The position numbers and the translations under genes are program-made. A stretch of DNA of 64,000 nucleotides from an uncultured Candidatus Saccharibacteria bacterium (GTDB taxonomy: Bacteria; Patescibacteriota; Saccharimonadia; Saccharimonadales; 2-12-FULL-41-12), in the NCBI GenBank assembly GCA_947085855.1, contig CAMTYB010000001.1, positions 469,788 through 533,787 of the forward strand, written 5' to 3'. This document shows positions 4,342-16,013 of this stretch, piece by piece (the first letter of the stretch is position 1; every line of letters begins with the position of its first letter). The notes beneath the pieces were generated by a model that ran no database searches, was not told the DNA's origin, and worked only from the letters and a program-made list of their open reading frames with translations.

Positions 4342-4710
4342 ATGACAATAATACTTATGCTCGGCTGGTGGTACAGTCGGGGCTGGCTCTGGACATTGCA
4401 AGCAACCGAGCGGCGACTGCAAACTATTGCACGTGTTTTTGCAGTTAAAATACTGTTTCGTACCTGGTTTTCACCTTGGAAGCAAATCTACACTGGCAAG
4501 TCCACCTTCCAAACCTTTATCCGTGATGTCGTCGACAACACCGTTTCGCGCTGCATTGGCGCCGTAGTCCGTGGCACCATTTTGCTATGGGCGGGCATTC
4601 TTAGTTTGTTCGTGCTTGTATTCGGCGTACTGCTGTTCTTGGCCTGGCCATTCATTCCATTTTTAACGATTATTCTGCCAATCTTAACGCTCACAGGGGT
4701 GGGGTTGTAA
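4342..4710 (+). CDS. small polytopic membrane protein, coupled to the downstream AAA+ gene
   Basis: ORF open from 4312; the ATG at 4342 avoids overlap with purF. It has Trp-rich 'GWWYSRGWLW' and hydrophobic C-terminal helices. Its stop TAA overlaps the ATG of the next gene (taATG at 4708-4712). Confidence 0.5.
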   Translation: MTIILMLGWWYSRGWLWTLQATERRLQTIARVFAVKILFRTWFSPWKQIYTGKSTFQTFIRDVVDNTVSRCIGAVVRGTILLWAGILSLFVLVFGVLLFLAWPFIPFLTIILPILTLTGVGL

Positions 4711-7109
4711 TGGAGTTCGTGTACCACGCCCATAGCGCCCGCCGCTCTAAAGCACGTGTTGGTCGAGCCATTGGCAAAAAACCGCTCGCCTACAGCACGG
4801 GCACACTAGCCATAGCCTTGGCCGTCACTGGCATGACCTTACTTGTTGCTGGCAACAGTCTTGGCTGGCTCTGTATGTTGCCCTTGGCTTGGTTTGGCTC
4901 GCTGTACGCTTGGTATAAAGGCGACTTGGCGGAACTCAAGCCAGGCAGGTTTGAAGAACAGGGAACTATATTGCTACACGAGGCATTAGAGCCTTCTGCC
5001 TTGGCGCTACTACCGAGCAAGCAGGATCTGTCGGCTTTTGAGTTATGGCAAGCACTCAGCGAAACCGAAGAACGATACTTTATGCAGAATCGCTTCCTCA
5101 TCGACAATACATTCTTTGAGCAATTTATGAGCAAAGAACCCGGTACTGCGCAACTGGTCTGGCAACAAGCTCAAAATCTCCAGCACAAACACCAAACCAA
5201 CGGCTATCCCACAATCTTAGTGTTCGTAGCTATGGTTAAGGCCGTACCAAATGTTGATCAGCTGCTGCGAACCGTTAGCCTTGAATTATCTGATATTGAA
5301 ACGAGTATTTCCTGGCTCGGCGACATTTACAAAAAACGGGCCTTGGCTCGCAAGAAACAATATTTTGGCGGCATTGGCAGAGACTGGGCCTATGGCTACA
5401 CGCCAATTCTTGGCACCTTGGGATTGAATATATCAAGGGGCATCGAAGAGCACGGCTTCTTTAGCGATACCAGTATGCATGAACACATCGTGCAGCAGAT
5501 GACTCAACTCCTGGGCAGCGGGCGACAAACTATTACCTTAGTTGGCGATGAAGGTGTTGGTAAAACAACCTGCGTCTACGCCTTTGCCGAGGCCTTGCTG
5601 GTCGATCCAGCTCTCAAGCGAAGCATTAAATATAGTCAGGTTATCCAGCTAGATGCTTCGACTTTGATTGCCAATGCCAAGCGACCGGGCGAACTTGAAG
5701 ACTTGATGATTCAAATCTTTAACGAAGCACATCATGCCAAAAATATCATTCTTTTCTTTGATGAAGCTCATCGCTTCTTCGACGCCGGCACCGGCAGCGT
5801 CGACCTATCTCACGTATTGCAACCAATACTCGAATCTGGCAGTTTGCGCATTATCTTGGCCATGAGCCCGCAACAGTGGCAAAAACTGGCAACCAGTGGC
5901 CGAGCCGCTAAACTAACTCCTGTTACTATCCCTCCAGCTGACGAAGAAAATACCCTAGCTATACTGCGCGACCAGGTTGGTATCATCGAGTATAGACATA
6001 AAGTTGCATTTACCTATCAGGCGCTGCAAGAAGCCTTTAAGCTCGGCAGCCGATACGTAACCACTCAGTCCATGCCAGGAGCGGGACTTGAAGTCCTGAA
6101 GCAAGCCGCCTCCAGCACCCAACAACAATTGATCACTCGAGAAGTTGTCCAAGCATCCATTGAGCAGACCTACGGCATCAAAGTACAGACAGCCGGCTCT
6201 CAGTCCGGTGAATCAAGTAATCTTTTGCATTTGGAAGATGAATTACGCCGACAGGTTGTCAGTCAAGATCGCGCCATTAGTGTCATCGCTAACGCCTTGC
6301 GTCGCTCTCGCAGCGGTGTTGGTAACCCCGATCGGCCAATTGGCACATTCTTATTCTTAGGCCCAACTGGCGTTGGTAAAACCGAACTCTCCAAAGCCTT
6401 GGCTCGCTCGTATTTTGGCGACGAAAAAGCCCTAGTGCGAGTGGACATGAATCAGTACGTCGGCGCTGACGATGTTAATCGCCTCATTGCCCCGATGAAG
6501 GGAAGCGACTTGGGCTTCCTAGGTGAAGTGCGCAAGCAACCATTTAGTGTCATCTTGCTTGATGAGATTGAAAAAGCCCATTCATCGGTGATCAACGCAC
6601 TTTTGCAGATGCTTGATGAAGACATGATGCGCGACAGCAACAACCAGACTGTGTCATTTCGTGATGCCATAATTATTGCCACCTCCAATGCTGGTGCTGA
6701 CGAAATCCGACGCTACATTGAAGAAGGTAAAGACATTGGTGAACTCGAGGCAACCTTTATTGATACGCTGATCAGCCGAGGCAGTTTTGCGCCAGAATTC
6801 GTCAACCGTTTTGACGAAGTCGTCCTATTTAAACCATTGTCGCCCCAAGATCTAATTCAAGTAATCGACTTGATCGTTGCCGGCATTAATAAGACTCTTG
6901 ATGCTCAAAAAGTTACGGTCAGCCTAACACCAGCTGCCAAACAATGGTTGGTAGAGAAGGGTTATGACTCTAAACTCGGTGCCCGCCCGATGCGCCGCAT
7001 GGCCCAACGCTACGTCGAAAATATTGTTGCCAAGAGACTGCTCGAAGGCACTAATCAGCCTGGCAGTGCTATTCAGCTCGATGTGGCTGACTTTGAAACA
7101 ACTCAGTAA
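4710..7109 (+). CDS. Clp/Hsp100-like double AAA+ ATPase with N-terminal transmembrane anchor
   Basis: AAA-1 has 'GDEGVGKTT' (Walker A) and 'ILFFDEAH' (Walker B). AAA-2 has 'GPTGVGKTELSKALA', 'VILLDEIEKAH' and sensor-2 'GARPMRR'. The first ~70 aa contain two hydrophobic helices ('LAIALAVTGMTLLVAG', 'WLCMLPLAWFGSLYAWY'). Confidence 0.8.
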   Translation: MEFVYHAHSARRSKARVGRAIGKKPLAYSTGTLAIALAVTGMTLLVAGNSLGWLCMLPLAWFGSLYAWYKGDLAELKPGRFEEQGTILLHEALEPSALALLPSKQDLSAFELWQALSETEERYFMQNRFLIDNTFFEQFMSKEPGTAQLVWQQAQNLQHKHQTNGYPTILVFVAMVKAVPNVDQLLRTVSLELSDIETSISWLGDIYKKRALARKKQYFGGIGRDWAYGYTPILGTLGLNISRGIEEHGFFSDTSMHEHIVQQMTQLLGSGRQTITLVGDEGVGKTTCVYAFAEALLVDPALKRSIKYSQVIQLDASTLIANAKRPGELEDLMIQIFNEAHHAKNIILFFDEAHRFFDAGTGSVDLSHVLQPILESGSLRIILAMSPQQWQKLATSGRAAKLTPVTIPPADEENTLAILRDQVGIIEYRHKVAFTYQALQEAFKLGSRYVTTQSMPGAGLEVLKQAASSTQQQLITREVVQASIEQTYGIKVQTAGSQSGESSNLLHLEDELRRQVVSQDRAISVIANALRRSRSGVGNPDRPIGTFLFLGPTGVGKTELSKALARSYFGDEKALVRVDMNQYVGADDVNRLIAPMKGSDLGFLGEVRKQPFSVILLDEIEKAHSSVINALLQMLDEDMMRDSNNQTVSFRDAIIIATSNAGADEIRRYIEEGKDIGELEATFIDTLISRGSFAPEFVNRFDEVVLFKPLSPQDLIQVIDLIVAGINKTLDAQKVTVSLTPAAKQWLVEKGYDSKLGARPMRRMAQRYVENIVAKRLLEGTNQPGSAIQLDVADFETTQ

Positions 7110-7119
7110 ATAACTGGGG

Positions 7120-7227
7120 GATATCGCCGCCTACGCGGCTCCTCCGCTCAGTCATGCTCGAAACAAGTTTCTGTGCGTGCCTTCGCTCCGCCGAACCCCT
7201 TTTGCTTCGCAAAAGTTGGGTTCTCAT
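7120..7227 (+). repeat. inverted-repeat element, copy A (77-bp conserved core 7120-7196 plus variable hairpin)
   Basis: The core matches the reverse complement of 8994-9070 with 3 mismatches in 77 bp (hand alignment). It is followed by GAACCC-cttttgcttcgcaaaag-tt-GGGTTC and a shared 'ggttctcat' end. Confidence 0.85.
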
Positions 7228-7240
7228 CTCTTTCGTTAAT

Positions 7241-7274
7241 AGAAAAGAGGCTAGCTTGTGCTAACCTCTTTTCT
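7241..7274. terminator. 10-bp perfect stem-loop between the AAA+ gene and tRNA-Ser
   Basis: agaaaagagg (7241-7250) pairs with cctcttttct (7265-7274) around a 14-nt loop. It abuts the 3' end of the minus-strand tRNA. There is no clean U-tract, so terminator function is uncertain. Confidence 0.35.
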
Positions 7275-7275
7275 A

Positions 7276-7365
7276 TGGCGGAAGGGGTGGGATTCGAACC
7301 CACGGTACCGTTGCCGGCACGACGGTTTTCAAGACCGTTTCCTTAAACCACTCGGACACCCTTCC
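7276..7365 (-). tRNA. tRNA-Ser (anticodon UGA)
   Basis: Hand-folded cloverleaf. Acceptor GGAAGGG/CCCTTCC, anticodon stem ACGGT/ACCGT with loop CTTGAAA, long variable arm, T-arm GTGGG-TTCGAAT-CCCAC, encoded CCA. Confidence 0.9.
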
Positions 7366-7449
7366 GTGGCAGTTTCAAATCATATTGATTTGAGAACAAT
7401 TTGCCTATTATAACAGATAGGGTGTCCGTTTACGAGTGATTAAGATTAG

Positions 7450-7611
7450 TTAGGATTGGAAGACGCTTCGAGAGCGACCTTCACTGACAAGATCCTCGAG
7501 CAACTGATCTGCGGTTTGATCGCGCAATTCTGGAAACTTATCCATCTTGCGAGAATAAAAGTCCTGCATTTGTCGTCGAGTTTGTCGCGTAGTGAACGTT
7601 ATTGAGCTCAT
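7450..7611 (-). CDS. small hypothetical protein (53 aa)
   Basis: The ATG at 7611 is preceded by GGGAGG with an 8-nt spacer. The product is basic at the N-terminus and acidic at the C-terminus. The longer ORF to 7692 lacks an RBS. Confidence 0.4.
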   Translation of the reverse strand: MSSITFTTRQTRRQMQDFYSRKMDKFPELRDQTADQLLEDLVSEGRSRSVFQS

Positions 7612-7724
7612 CGCTTTTCGCCTCCCTTTAGTTGTTACATTAGTACTGTATCTTCTTGGGCTATTTTGTACTGTTAAATAACTCACGCTCACAAAAATAC
7701 CGAAGTTATGCGATAATCAATTGC

Positions 7725-8012
7725 ATGAAAAAACAGTCCGCCGTTATGGAATTTGTGGCCACTGAGCGAGCCAGAGGGAAGGGCGACAAGGAAATCCAAC
7801 ATGATTTGCTTGATGCCGGTTGGCACATGGACATTGTTCGACACGCTCTTGGCAAGAAGACGCACAACACTCCAAACATGAAAACCAAAGCCAAAACAGC
7901 TGAAGTGCCGGTTTCACTGTGGCAACATCCAAAGCTGCAAAGCGTTATTCGGCACCCGTACACATGGGTGACTGTTTTTATGATCTTAATACTCTTGGCG
8001 TTGTTTGCCTGA
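7725..8012 (+). CDS. small C-terminally anchored hypothetical protein (95 aa)
   Basis: The ATG at 7725 gives 'MKKQSAV...'. It has a single C-terminal hydrophobic helix 'WVTVFMILILLALFA'. ORF open from 7656. Confidence 0.35.
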   Translation: MKKQSAVMEFVATERARGKGDKEIQHDLLDAGWHMDIVRHALGKKTHNTPNMKTKAKTAEVPVSLWQHPKLQSVIRHPYTWVTVFMILILLALFA

Positions 8013-8075
8013 CCTCCTGATTGTCTGGTATACTCTACATCTGTTGCACTGGTGTAAAATGCCGCACAACTCCAT

Positions 8076-8168
8076 GGAGAGGTACCCAAGTGGCTGAAGG
8101 GGACGGTTTGCTAAATCGTTAGGGGGGCGAAAGCTCCCGCGAGGGTTCGAATCCCTCTCTCTCCGCCA
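8076..8168 (+). tRNA. tRNA-Ser (anticodon GCU)
   Basis: Acceptor GGAGAGG/TCTCTCC, anticodon stem ACGGT/ATCGT with loop TTGCTAA, long variable arm GGGGGGCGAAAGCTCCCGC, T-arm GAGGG-TTCGAAT-CCCTC, encoded CCA. Confidence 0.85.
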
Positions 8169-8202
8169 AGTTGTTCGGCACAATCATTTCATCTGTTACA
8201 AT

Positions 8203-8763
8203 ATGCTTATGCAACCAACAAGTCAGCCGACTGAACCTACCGAAACTCAAGACAGCAATTGGGCGTTTCGCCCTGAAGACACCTCTGCGACTCCTTCATC
8301 ATCACCTCAACCGGTAACGTGGACAGCTTCCGAATTTATAGCCCATCACAAAGATGGCGGTTGGTACACGCTAGTCATCGTTGGATTTATCATTCTTTGT
8401 AGCGCTATCTATCTAGTAACCAAAGATATTATTTCGGTTGTAGCCATTAGTGTCGTGGCATTTTTGTTTTTAATCGTCAGCAGTAAAAAGCCAAAACAAC
8501 AATCTTACACTGTCGATGACCGAGGCGTTTCAATTGGTCAAAAATTCTACCCCTATAGCTCATTCAAATCTTTTGCGCTACTGCATGAAGGTGCCTTTTC
8601 GTACATCAGCTTCATGCCACTCAAGCGCTTGATGCCGGAGCTATCCATCTATTTTGCACCAGAAGATGAAGCTCGAATTGTCAGTGTATTAGCCACTAAC
8701 TTGCCAAATGATCAGACTATCGAAAAGGGTATCGATCGCGTCATGAAACAACTTCGTTTCTAA
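8203..8763 (+). CDS. hypothetical membrane protein (two TM helices plus C-terminal soluble domain)
   Basis: 186-aa ORF with a Pro/Ser/Thr-rich N-terminus and hydrophobic hairpin 'WYTLVIVGFIILCSAIYL...VVAISVVAFLFLIV'. No known motif recognised. Confidence 0.5.
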   Translation: MLMQPTSQPTEPTETQDSNWAFRPEDTSATPSSSPQPVTWTASEFIAHHKDGGWYTLVIVGFIILCSAIYLVTKDIISVVAISVVAFLFLIVSSKKPKQQSYTVDDRGVSIGQKFYPYSSFKSFALLHEGAFSYISFMPLKRLMPELSIYFAPEDEARIVSVLATNLPNDQTIEKGIDRVMKQLRF

Positions 8764-8840
8764 AATTTACAGGCTCTAACCCTAGTAATTTAGTGGAAAA
8801 CGTGCTAAGATAACCCCTGTTTCCGCACAATTTTATATGT

Positions 8841-8917
8841 GTACCCGTAGCTCAGCTGGATAGAGCGTTGGCTTGCGGAGCCAAAGGTCGTAGGTTCAAA
8901 TCCTGCCGGGTATACCA
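8841..8917 (+). tRNA. tRNA-Arg (anticodon GCG)
   Basis: 77-nt cloverleaf. D-arm GCTC-AGCTGGATA-GAGC, anticodon stem TTGGC/GCCAA with loop TTGCGGA, T-arm GTAGG-TTCAAAT-CCTGC, encoded CCA. Confidence 0.8.
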
Positions 8918-8926
8918 AATTAAGGA

Positions 8927-8947
8927 CCTCACGAAAGTGGGGTTTTT
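8927..8947 (+). terminator. rho-independent terminator after tRNA-Arg
   Basis: cctcac-gaaa-gtgggg stem-loop (one G:U pair) followed by TTTTT. Confidence 0.6.
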
Positions 8948-8967
8948 AATTTGGTTAATCATCACGC

Positions 8968-9070
8968 ATGAGAACCGTCCTGCGCAGCAGTAGGTTCAGC
9001 GGAGCGAAGGCACGCGCAGAAACTTGTTTCGAGCATGACTGAGCGGAGGAGCCGCGGAGGCGGCGATATC
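8968..9070 (-). repeat. inverted-repeat element, copy B (core 8994-9070)
   Basis: Reverse complement of copy A. The internal hairpin differs in sequence (GAACC-tactgctgcgcaggac-GGTTC) but keeps the outer stem. Confidence 0.85.
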
Positions 9071-9107
9071 CTGTTGGTTCTATGTTTTTAGATGCTACTA
9101 TTAAATT

Positions 9108-15289: not shown

Positions 15290-15916
15290 TTACTGAGCCC
15301 GAGCGAATACTACGCCGATTACCGATAGTGCACCAGCTTTGAGTAGGGTCTCGGCTGCTGCCATGAGCGTTGCACCAGTTGTAAAAACATCATCTACGAG
15401 TACGACTGGCATACCTGTTATGCGCGCAGGATTCCGGACAGTAAATGCTCCTTGCAGCTGATCAAACCTTTGCTGCCGTGCCGAACCAACCTGACGAGTT
15501 TGTTTTTGCCTGAGCAAGACTTCTTGGTAAACCAAGTTGCGTCGTCTGGCAAAGCTCTGAGCCATCAAGACGGCTTGATCATACCCACGCTGCCGAATTC
15601 TTGCGTGAGCCGTAGGGACAGGGCAAATCACTACATGAGGCGGTAGTTTCGGGACAATTCCATGAAGAGCGCTGCCAAGTAGCCGAGCTGTGGCCTTTTG
15701 GCGTTTAAACTTCATGCCGCTAATTACTTCCTTGGCGAGGCCTCCGTAAGCTGTTCCGGCCCAAACCACTATAAAGCTGTGGCCTTGACCAAGCTTTATA
15801 GAGTGCGGCGAGAGAAGCTGCTGTAGACAAGGTTCACACAGTGACTGAGCTTCTGCACCACAGCCAGCACAGAGATGAGGAGCAAGCAGGGAAGTTAACC
15901 ATTCAACTGTGTTCAT
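15290..15916 (-). CDS. comFC: ComF family protein (ComFC-like phosphoribosyltransferase-fold competence protein)
   Basis: N-terminal 4-Cys zinc-finger-like 'CAGCG...CEPC' and C-terminal PRT loop 'VVLVDDVFTTGATL'. Confidence 0.8.
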   Translation of the reverse strand: MNTVEWLTSLLAPHLCAGCGAEAQSLCEPCLQQLLSPHSIKLGQGHSFIVVWAGTAYGGLAKEVISGMKFKRQKATARLLGSALHGIVPKLPPHVVICPVPTAHARIRQRGYDQAVLMAQSFARRRNLVYQEVLLRQKQTRQVGSARQQRFDQLQGAFTVRNPARITGMPVVLVDDVFTTGATLMAAAETLLKAGALSVIGVVFARAQ

Positions 15917-16013
15917 AACGAACAGTATGGAGTCCTTGGGTAAAATTTTGGTTAACGAACAACATTTTGTTATATGTAGTAATTATTGTGTTGTAAATAA
16001 GTAAGCGTATTGC

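Follow-up and report, generated by a model that had tools for sequence, protein, structure and literature searches.

Two near-identical inverted sequences in a 64,000-nucleotide stretch of DNA from an uncultured Candidatus Saccharibacteria bacterium (assembly GCA_947085855.1, contig CAMTYB010000001.1, positions 469,788 to 533,787; hereafter "the window") appear to be two ordinary members of a structurally conserved family that is tied to tRNA genes in bacteria of the Candidate Phyla Radiation (CPR). Each member is a module of about 100-190 nt immediately 3' of a tRNA gene. Our preferred interpretation, to which we give slightly less than an even chance, is that these modules are non-autonomous, site-specific insertions that target tRNA T-loops and act as a folded single strand.

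A repeat search of the window revealed inverted arms at positions 7119-7197 and 8993-9071, which are 79 nt long and 96% complementary, and the 27-mer in their core occurs exactly twice in the window versus zero times expected in shuffles. With the filters switched off, our covariance model (termed R1) finds in the 64 kb these two copies alone, "A" with 84.7 bits (E 9e-20) and "B" with 82.4 bits, the next best hit scoring 8.7 bits. The near-identical inverted copies had been noticed in a preliminary description of the stretch, and the particulars reported there are indeed present: the outer GATATC in both copies, the inner GAACC...GGTTC stems with differing hairpins (cttttgc-ttc-gcaaaag versus ctgc-gca-gcag), the common end "ggttctcat", and a GCCGC-nnnn-GCGGC hairpin with one mismatch in the loop. 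The repeat had been taken for a stand-alone unit of 105 bp; in fact, each copy is the distal part of a module of approximately 160 nt that begins where a tRNA gene ends. Module A (7116-7275, minus strand) follows tRNA-Ser(UGA) (7276..7365, minus strand; identified by ARAGORN, Rfam tRNA score 59.1 bits), while module B (8918-9074, plus strand) follows tRNA-Arg(GCG) (8841..8917, plus strand; ARAGORN, 68.1 bits), each in the orientation of its own tRNA. The two modules are inverted relative to each other only because these two tRNA genes diverge. The 96% identity of the copies would be due to recent spread or to gene conversion between paralogues.

Analysis of the module anatomy reveals a common layout: a terminator hairpin abutting the CCA end of the tRNA, a GAACC-n / n-GGTTC stem with a small hairpin, a mimic of the T-stem followed by TTCG, the core, and a tail. 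The core of about 75 nt contains two hairpins, of which P2/P3 is long and irregular and P4 is variable; invariant purine-rich strands (AGCGAA, CRCAG/CGAG, and YGAGCGGA) link them. In module A (all parts on the minus strand), a terminator-like palindromic hairpin at the CCA end of the tRNA (ATAGAAAAGAGGTTAGC-acaa-GCTAGCCTCTTTTCTAT, 7239..7276; inverted repeat I5, 17-nt arms, 94%) is followed by stem P1, GAACCC/GGGTTC, around hairpin X, CTTTTGC-GAA-GCAAAAG, with a triloop of the GCGAAGC type (7193..7225, evident in the sequence and in both DNA and RNA folds). The core unit (7116..7200, delineated by the covariance model and alignment A3) contains the T-stem 5' mimic with TTCG, the core, P4, GAT, and ATCCCCC; within it, the 45-nt conserved core spans 7143-7187 and P4 spans 7126-7139, and the terminal ATCCCCC is a remnant of the 3' side of a tRNA T-loop and T-stem. 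In module B (plus strand), the stem of the terminator-like hairpin takes in the ACCA end of the tRNA (ACCAAATTAAGGACCTCAC-gaaa-GTGGGGTTTTTAATTTGGT, 8914..8955; inverted repeat I6, 19-nt arms, 84%), and P1, GAGAACC/GGTTC, encloses hairpin X, CTGC-GCA-GCAG (8970..8998, from the sequence and its alignment with copy A). The core unit of B (8990..9074, from the covariance model and comparison with the tRNA 3' end) reads GTAGG-TTCA, core, P4, GAT, ATCCTGT, with the 45-nt conserved core at 9003-9047 and P4 at 9051-9064. Here GTAGG-TTCA matches the 5' side of the T-arm of the adjoining tRNA-Arg, including its TTCA loop variant, and ATCCTGT is a remnant of nt 59-65 of the same tRNA. The GAGAACC...GGTTCGG design of P1 recurs in other members of the family. 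Both terminator-like hairpins of the window are strong and have arms with A/T tracts; a simple terminator scan left I5 and I6 unflagged.

A 20-mer scan of species-representative genomes led us to three Saccharibacteria/Patescibacteria metagenome-assembled genomes (MAGs), and a search with a pattern derived from the unpaired conserved positions (AGCGAA-N6-CRCAG-N10-CGAG-N7-GAGCGRA) to 86 metagenome contigs. The earlier idea of a dispersed family is thereby supported. The collected loci (cited below by number, e.g. L001) contain 98 pattern matches with 76 distinct 45-nt cores; the match in L049 was rejected as a family member, since it lacks any module context and looks like chance. The covariance model, built on 37 members, yielded 105 hits in the 498 kb of collected locus sequence. 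Directly upstream, 56 non-redundant cases have as their closest feature a tRNA gene of the same orientation, which ends 74-110 nt before the core. The module-bearing tRNAs represent more than 20 isoacceptors, always in the same orientation as the module: Arg (4 anticodons), Ser (3), Val (3), Lys (2), Gln (2), and Leu (2), as well as Asn, Met, Pro, Trp, Phe, Asp, and Glu; variant cores were found behind tRNAs Thr, Gly, Glu(ttc), and Ser(cga). Further variant cores were noted in L036 (712-791), L003 (15823-15920), L038 (1778-1864), L082 (1761-1840), and L061 (1490-1575). In Rfam 15, which includes group I and II introns, ribozymes, and tRNA-like RNAs, only the three tRNAs of the window reach the gathering score, and the core is unmatched even at E<=10. 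The literature that we consulted describes group I introns in tRNAs of Patescibacteria and a model of tRNA-targeting islands, and does not describe this module; apparently, the family has been undescribed.

The module ends in a duplicate of the 18 nt at the 3' end of the adjoining tRNA (nt 59-76, including CCA). We identified these tails by matching to the upstream tRNA, and in the 37 clear cases the copy agrees with the tRNA at 18/18 positions in 16 and at 17/18 in a further 9. The base that precedes the tail is T in 30 of the 37, and the corresponding A58 of the tRNA is present in all 37. Upstream of the core we find TTCG, preceded by 2-5 bases that match the 5' strand of the tRNA T-stem. 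Since the T-stem 5' match and TTCG come before the core and nt 59-76 come after it, the core occupies the position of A58 of a T-arm. A search of 102 tRNAs for displaced 3' ends revealed about three dozen 18-nt fragments, all of them co-oriented with the tRNA, all starting at nt 59, and all lying behind a core or variant core; a displaced fragment with an uninterrupted T-arm was not found around these tRNAs. In the window, both fragments (ATCCCCC in A and ATCCTGT in B) are worn down to 5-7 nt.

The terminator also belongs to the module. A strong trailer hairpin is found behind 56/56 module-bearing tRNAs (mean -26.6 kcal/mol), as compared to 43% of other tRNAs, and several tRNAs of the latter group carry variant modules. 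The presence of the hairpin on all module-bearing tRNAs, together with its absence from the empty sites in L002 and L003, indicates that it is part of the module. In many modules (e.g. in L003, L042, L043, L046, and L053), the terminator is directly followed by a degenerate reverse-complement copy of the 3' half of the tRNA (TGG-N-acceptor-T arm), which extends the palindrome into the tRNA.

In some loci (L054, L060, L063, L078, L086, and L089) the displaced tail carries an extra small hairpin inserted after its 10th nucleotide (in L063, for example, at about 6176-6230); one such tail reads ATCCGGCCTC-(44 nt)-CGGAGCCA, and an 18-nt hairpin was seen in L058 (about 2545-2565). These insertions mark a second recurrent insertion point, within the acceptor 3' strand. 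We also observed a second, different structured core at the same position as the first, in L005 (346-466) and on the reverse strand of L019 (about 186-258, 1020-1090, and 2240-2300). It lies between a TTCG/TTCAA-like motif on its 5' side and ATCC, T-stem, acceptor, and CCA on its 3' side. Thus, the 58|59 junction is shared by more than one family of cores.

The exact boundary at position 58 recalls retroelements. In retroviruses and long-terminal-repeat (LTR) retrotransposons, the primer-binding site corresponds to the 3'-terminal 18 nt of a tRNA and is bounded by position 58 (m1A58), and the module tail is exactly this segment; unlike a primer-binding site, the tail is in sense orientation and lies beside the gene of the same tRNA, and we found neither a reverse transcriptase nor LTR-like repeats. 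One may nevertheless envisage a tRNA-primed or tRNA-templated retro-copy, in which reverse transcription of a mature tRNA stopped or misread at m1A58, leaving an 18-nt fragment with T in place of A58. The exactness of the 58|59 boundary in all fragments, the inclusion of CCA, the T for A58 in 30/37 cases, and the primer-binding-site-like reverse-complement 3' ends after many terminators would all agree with such an origin. We consider it highly improbable, however: CCA is genome-encoded in these tRNAs and its presence in the fragment is therefore uninformative, the T-stem 5' mimic upstream of the core is left unexplained, no reverse transcriptase was seen near any module, and group II introns are absent from a survey of 95 complete genomes of Patescibacteria (PMC13011429).

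The claim that the modules are structured is based on covariation, because single-sequence folding z-scores are significant for copy A only. We counted the P2/P3 pairs directly on the cores with fixed spacing: pair 10-34 is AT in 51, TA in 16, and GC in 6 cores, pair 12-32 is GC in 51, TA in 17, and AT in 4, and pair 7-37 is GC in 39, AT in 23, CG in 4, and TA in 2. The four P3 pairs each switch between two Watson-Crick types, and one C.A mismatch is kept in 70/75 cores. In alignment A3, paired cells make up 90.4% versus 72.4% in shuffles, and the covariation score of 0.487 (0.175 in shuffles) is reached by 0/500 shuffles and falls to <=0.10 if the partners are slid. Both sides change in 17/22 pairs, including all four pairs of P4 and four of the T-stem. 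Through its innermost 3-4 bp, the mimic pairs with the T-stem 3' strand of the fragment also in cases where its sequence departs from that of the tRNA. RNAalifold predicts invariant G-C/C-G pairs that flank tandem G.A pairs between AGCGAA and UGAGCG, and a GGA/UCC helix that competes with the T-stem. The preliminary description had argued for a structured nucleic acid rather than coding sequence, and the covariation of the helices across 37-76 family members supports this view. It is also correct that the small open reading frame (ORF) over the repeat is shifted between the copies: the two ORFs are in different frames, neither a start nor a Shine-Dalgarno signal is conserved, and we rejected a coding function.

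The core is also the best-kept part of the sequence after the tRNA in orthologous pairs, exceeding the hairpin region between terminator and core; its identity is 76-100% at orthologous loci, as against about 50-60% in their diverged flanks. The two window paralogues share one P4 hairpin, while the P4 of the orthologue in the 94% relative L001 differs from it in a compensated manner (GCCC-GCA-GGGC). These observations bear on the idea that the modules are inert leftovers, i.e. decayed attachment-site scars of old integrations or a functionless old duplication. The truncation of both window fragments and the lack of a recombinase nearby in the window speak for it, but it is contradicted by the compensated helices and by more than 20 invariant positions over 76 distinct cores, by a core that outlasts its flanks, and by the P4 hairpin that the window paralogues share and the L001 orthologue does not; we give it almost no credence.

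Pair and loop statistics bear on which nucleic acid folds. On the tRNA-sense strand the variable pairs include 23 G.T versus 8 A.C, an excess that points to the sense strand as the folded one. Triloops account for 38/75 P4 loops (GNA in 19 and AAA in 8; 31 are closed by C-G), none of the P4 loops is GNRA and UNCG loops occur only twice; the P3 loops are of the CUUG/UUUA type. Many X hairpins read GCGAAGC or GCGNAGC. The d(GCGAAGC)-type triloop is the signature of an ultra-stable DNA mini-hairpin and is not a typical choice of RNA loops, so the loop choice favors DNA over RNA, as a hint and not as proof. Among known RNA motifs compared by eye, the hammerhead and other small ribozymes were dismissed, the core lacking CUGANGA/GAAA, and so was the k-turn of the box C/D type, since the pairing with a 3-nt bulge is unsupported by the variable base N13, and plain tandem G.A pairs within a helix fit better. 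TIGR arrays were discarded as well, because the modules are not regularly spaced repeats.

The main rival to our interpretation is a structured non-coding RNA, in which the core and the T-arm-like frame would be transcribed with the tRNA or just after it, as a trailer RNA or a cis element, and could, for example, signal processing or stability, bind a protein, or act as a small ribozyme; the flanks derived from tRNA would then only record its origin. We regard this as somewhat unlikely. Its strengths are the strong covariation in P2, P3, and P4, the excess of G.U over A.C on the tRNA-sense strand, the tandem G.A pairs between invariant G-C pairs and the CUUG/UUUA-type loops of P3, the conservation of the core above its flanks across orthologous loci, and the fixed orientation relative to a transcribed gene. 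It is weakened by the position of the module behind a strong terminator-like hairpin, by a promoter-like site being predicted before neither window copy, by the lack of any match in Rfam, and by the near absence of GNRA and UNCG loops; moreover, an RNA in itself does not account for the exactness of the 18-nt repeats, for unlike members standing in tandem, or for gain and loss. The two possibilities are not mutually exclusive, as a mobile module could at the same time encode an RNA.

Comparison with relatives reveals that modules come and go at individual tRNAs. Locus L003, in a contig of 1.19 Mb and with 70% identity in the Clp protein, has the same islet as the window, comprising tRNA-Ser(tga) on the minus strand, tRNA-Ser(gct), a 187-aa ORF, and tRNA-Arg(gcg), and both the module and the trailer hairpin are absent from its two outer tRNAs. 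It follows that the islet is ancestral and is not a cassette. Conversely, L003 has a variant module (15759-15920) after tRNA-Ser(gct), a site that is free of modules in the window. The module behind tRNA-Ser(tga) is present in the window and L001, and absent from L002 (80% Clp identity) and L003. The preliminary description had offered the two copies as terminal inverted repeats of a mobile, non-autonomous cassette of 1.9 kb, which would carry the three tRNAs and three ORFs. The 79-nt inverted repeat of 96% that brackets the segment is what such a cassette would show, but the islet of L003 with the same gene order and orientation lacks these copies, each copy is oriented by its own tRNA, modules elsewhere lie singly behind single tRNAs or form direct repeats (L006), and the three tRNAs are the only ones in the 64 kb and presumably essential; this explanation has hardly any probability left.

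Several loci contain more than one module. Two tandem cores in L031 (about 70% identical) and two unlike tandem modules in L042 follow one tRNA each, and in L005 one tRNA is followed by three different cores, with a tRNA-Arg tail after each. Tandem unlike members, gain and loss, and the lack of fragments without a core argue for serial insertion at 58|59.

Larger rearrangements also take place at these sites. L036 and L078, whose flanks are 99.8% identical, have different cargo of 0.8 kb and 2.8 kb between the 3' end of tRNA-Asn and the module terminator (L036 646-1426; L078 3660-6500), while L063 has none (6017-6227). At the same junction, L058 is distinguished from L023 (99.9% identical; L023 4782) by an island of 4.8 kb or more, and a degenerate T-arm-like attR is visible in L023. 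The cargo genes are of common accessory types and encode PemK, Fic, DUF4145, DUF4238, a kinase resembling zeta toxin, an AlaX-like protein, and a beta-eliminating lyase, in addition to an ORF judged by eye to be RelE-like. On the reverse strand of L032 (833-1130), a core comes after tRNA-Gln(ctg) and its hairpin, and beyond it lie the 18-mer of tRNA-Asn and the downstream flank of the tRNA-Asn locus; this right side is 95% identical to L090 (1427-1630), with the switch at the core, and L032 looks like a recombinant between two modules joined at the core. Whatever the origin of the core, one may consider it and the tRNA mainly as a portable anchor of homology, at which naturally competent cells swap tRNA-adjacent genes and the chromosome rearranges or inverts. 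The unlike cargo of L036 and L078 next to the empty L063, the island that separates L058 from L023, and the tRNA-Gln/tRNA-Asn joint in L032 are all consistent with it. We nevertheless find it quite unlikely as the primary explanation, as it accounts for consequences and not for the conserved fold or the 58|59 junction; besides, the only repeat at the cargo joints is of 6-7 nt, namely the last 6-7 nt of the tRNA (GAGCCA / GCTACCA), and other integrative elements are thus probably responsible for the cargo.

Two further observations concern variable or broken sequence at these loci. The interval between the clp-like gene and tRNA-Ser(tga) varies from locus to locus, the genes present there being mutually unrelated: a 309-aa gene in L001 (12372-13301), a 374-aa gene in L002 (2724-3848), and genes of 224 and 412 aa in L003 (12414-14497), while in the window it is empty (7110-7119), with the clp stop codon 10 nt from the module. 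Contigs of L001 (13311-13356, contig end) and L093 (1-48, contig start), which are independent short-read assemblies of close relatives, break within a module at hairpin P3, probably as an assembly artefact caused by the inverted repeat.

The family was compared with known systems. In the Islander model of tRNA-targeting islands (PMC4383910), the element inserts into the 3' part of a tRNA gene and restores the gene, with a displaced 3' fragment left at the far end, and in the tycheposons of Prochlorococcus each integrase is specific to one tRNA (10.1101/2020.12.28.424599). Like these elements, the modules leave a regenerated tRNA and a displaced 3' fragment as a direct repeat (of which the window keeps only 5-7 nt), older insertions are pushed outward, variable cargo lies beside the tRNA, and presence or absence varies between relatives (window and L001 versus L002 and L003; tRNA-Ser(gct) in L003). 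Unlike tRNA-targeting islands, the module measures just 100-190 bp, has no integrase of its own, inside or nearby, and in every case a covarying structured core interrupts its displaced fragment at position 58; unlike in tycheposons, one core family serves more than 20 tRNA isoacceptors. Membership in the miniature inverted-repeat transposable elements (MITEs) or repetitive extragenic palindromes (REP/BIME), suggested earlier, did not hold up: a single module has unlike ends and internal hairpins instead of terminal inverted repeats of its own and a target-site duplication, and instead of many dispersed copies there are two in 64 kb, strictly tied to tRNA 3' ends, with just one or two strict-pattern matches in single large metagenome contigs.

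Integron attC sites and the attP(+) hairpin of CTX phage are recombination sites that fold from a single strand. Module function would likewise require intrastrand folding, with a conserved structure, variable stems, and a single active strand; L019, in which three modules alternate with small ORFs, is reminiscent of an array of integron cassettes, and is the only array-like locus. The differences are that no link to IntI or Xer was seen, the core sequence of the module is far more conserved, and the target is a tRNA T-loop. The module was rejected as an attC site in the strict sense, as the R''/R' consensus (RYYYAAC/GTTRRRY) is violated by CCGAACC/GGTTCGG, which has C at the first R position. 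Palindrome-associated transposable elements (PATEs) are miniature derivatives of the IS200/IS605 family moved by Y1 HUH transposases. As in PATEs, the module is small, lacks ORFs, has two hairpins, and would be inserted on one strand just 3' of a fixed motif (TTCGA of the T-loop); short motifs 5' of the module hairpins (CGAA; GGA) are complementary to the sequences flanking the insertion point (TTCG; TCC), which is reminiscent of the pairing between guide and cleavage site. Unlike in PATEs, the left end is specific to the tRNA, the sequence of the terminator hairpin is not conserved, and the copy number is very low; no TnpA (Y1) was found among the top Pfam families of the window. An intron in the T-loop of a tRNA was likewise rejected, since only nt ~49-57 and 59-76 are present and what lies upstream are the module hairpins and an intact tRNA; the known tRNA introns of Patescibacteria are group I introns located in the anticodon loop (PMC13011429) and are unrelated to the modules. 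An IncP-type nic site (YATCCTG|Y) was rejected as well, since it fits only the copies derived from tRNA-Arg.

In the T-loop insertion that we favor, the module would enter the tRNA gene between nt 58 and 59, bringing along its own copy of nt 59-76 and a terminator; since it would supply both, the tRNA would stay intact, while the original 3' end would be displaced downstream, behind the core. The core would act as a folded single strand, more likely of DNA than of RNA. Folding would set the T-stem mimic beside the displaced T-stem 3' strand, so as to form a structure resembling a T-arm, from whose side the core branches off, which may serve as a structured attachment site for a recombinase or transposase encoded elsewhere. 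The exact 58|59 junction, the regenerated gene and terminator, the displaced tail, the serial unlike insertions, and gain and loss fit the logic of integrative elements that target tRNAs; folding in vivo, the preference for DNA over RNA, and the existence of a moving enzyme are three steps that we infer. A more specific form of the proposal, which we rate as rather unlikely, is a new class of miniature mobile elements, in which the ~75-nt core as single-stranded DNA (or an RNA guide) would recognize the universally conserved T-loop through base pairing of CGAA to TTCG, of GGA to TCC, and of the T-stem mimic to the 3' strand of the T-stem, and would insert at 58|59 while rebuilding the gene. 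Recognition by base pairing would make the module retargetable to any tRNA by 3-5 base changes.

A number of findings weigh against insertion as the origin of the modules. No recombinase, transposase, or reverse transcriptase was found near the modules by clustering of neighboring ORFs and three Pfam scans: the 284 neighboring ORFs fall into 244 clusters, none of them enriched beyond synteny, and the Pfam scans of cargo and window proteins returned toxin-antitoxin, Fic, DUF, and type IV secretion system (T4SS) genes and no integrase (in the window, among the top families). The module itself has no ORF. Copies were found in no viral contigs, phage records, or plasmids, with 0 hits to two patterns in IMG/VR and 0 in phage and plasmid collections. 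Among the collected loci there is no pair of an empty and a filled site with more than 95% flank identity for the module itself. A low copy number (2 in 64 kb) and persistence at orthologous sites over long divergence, with compensatory changes, equally suit an RNA useful to the host. Finally, 100-190 bp is too small for an ordinary double-stranded excised circle, and the call for DNA over RNA is one of loop statistics only.

The remaining features of the window provide the context. The three tRNAs of the islet that had been reported earlier are confirmed by ARAGORN and Rfam; the third, tRNA-Ser(GCU) (8076..8168, plus strand; ARAGORN), carries no module here, as the covariance model gives no hit. 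Between tRNA-Ser(gct) and tRNA-Arg lies a membrane-type ORF of 186 aa (8203-8763), for which no Pfam family above threshold was found and the exact protein is not on record. It had been counted among three small orphan ORFs, but it has homologs next to these tRNAs in L003 (15974-16537) and five other loci (L006, L007, L026, L042, and L071) and is hence not an orphan. The Clp/AAA+ protein encoded upstream (4710-7109) has an N-terminus that looks by eye like two membrane helices standing where a Clp N-domain would usually be; close homologs of ~800 aa are common among metagenome proteins of the Saccharimonadales type. Seven ORFs of the window match T4SS pilin/TrbC families and one encodes a TraG P-loop protein (roughly 16.7-19.9 kb and elsewhere). 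The presence of dnaA and dnaN suggests that the window is probably near the replication origin.

Saccharibacteria and other CPR bacteria have tiny genomes with few recognised mobile elements, and show strain-level turnover of genes beside tRNA genes that has been left unexplained. A conserved, covarying module that marks such sites offers a handle on gene acquisition in CPR genomes, and it also accounts for the broken and mis-joined assemblies seen at tRNA loci of these MAGs. It is distinguished by the combination of an exact T-loop junction, a terminator of its own, and the use of more than 20 tRNAs without a linked integrase. If the modules are instead RNAs, a widespread family of RNAs new to Rfam would have been recognised. 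Should the core guide its own insertion, it would represent a new kind of device for site-specific integration, which could possibly be retargeted, and the structure-guided form of the proposal, if true, would mean that ultra-small CPR genomes, seemingly poor in mobile elements, possess a programmable integration system.

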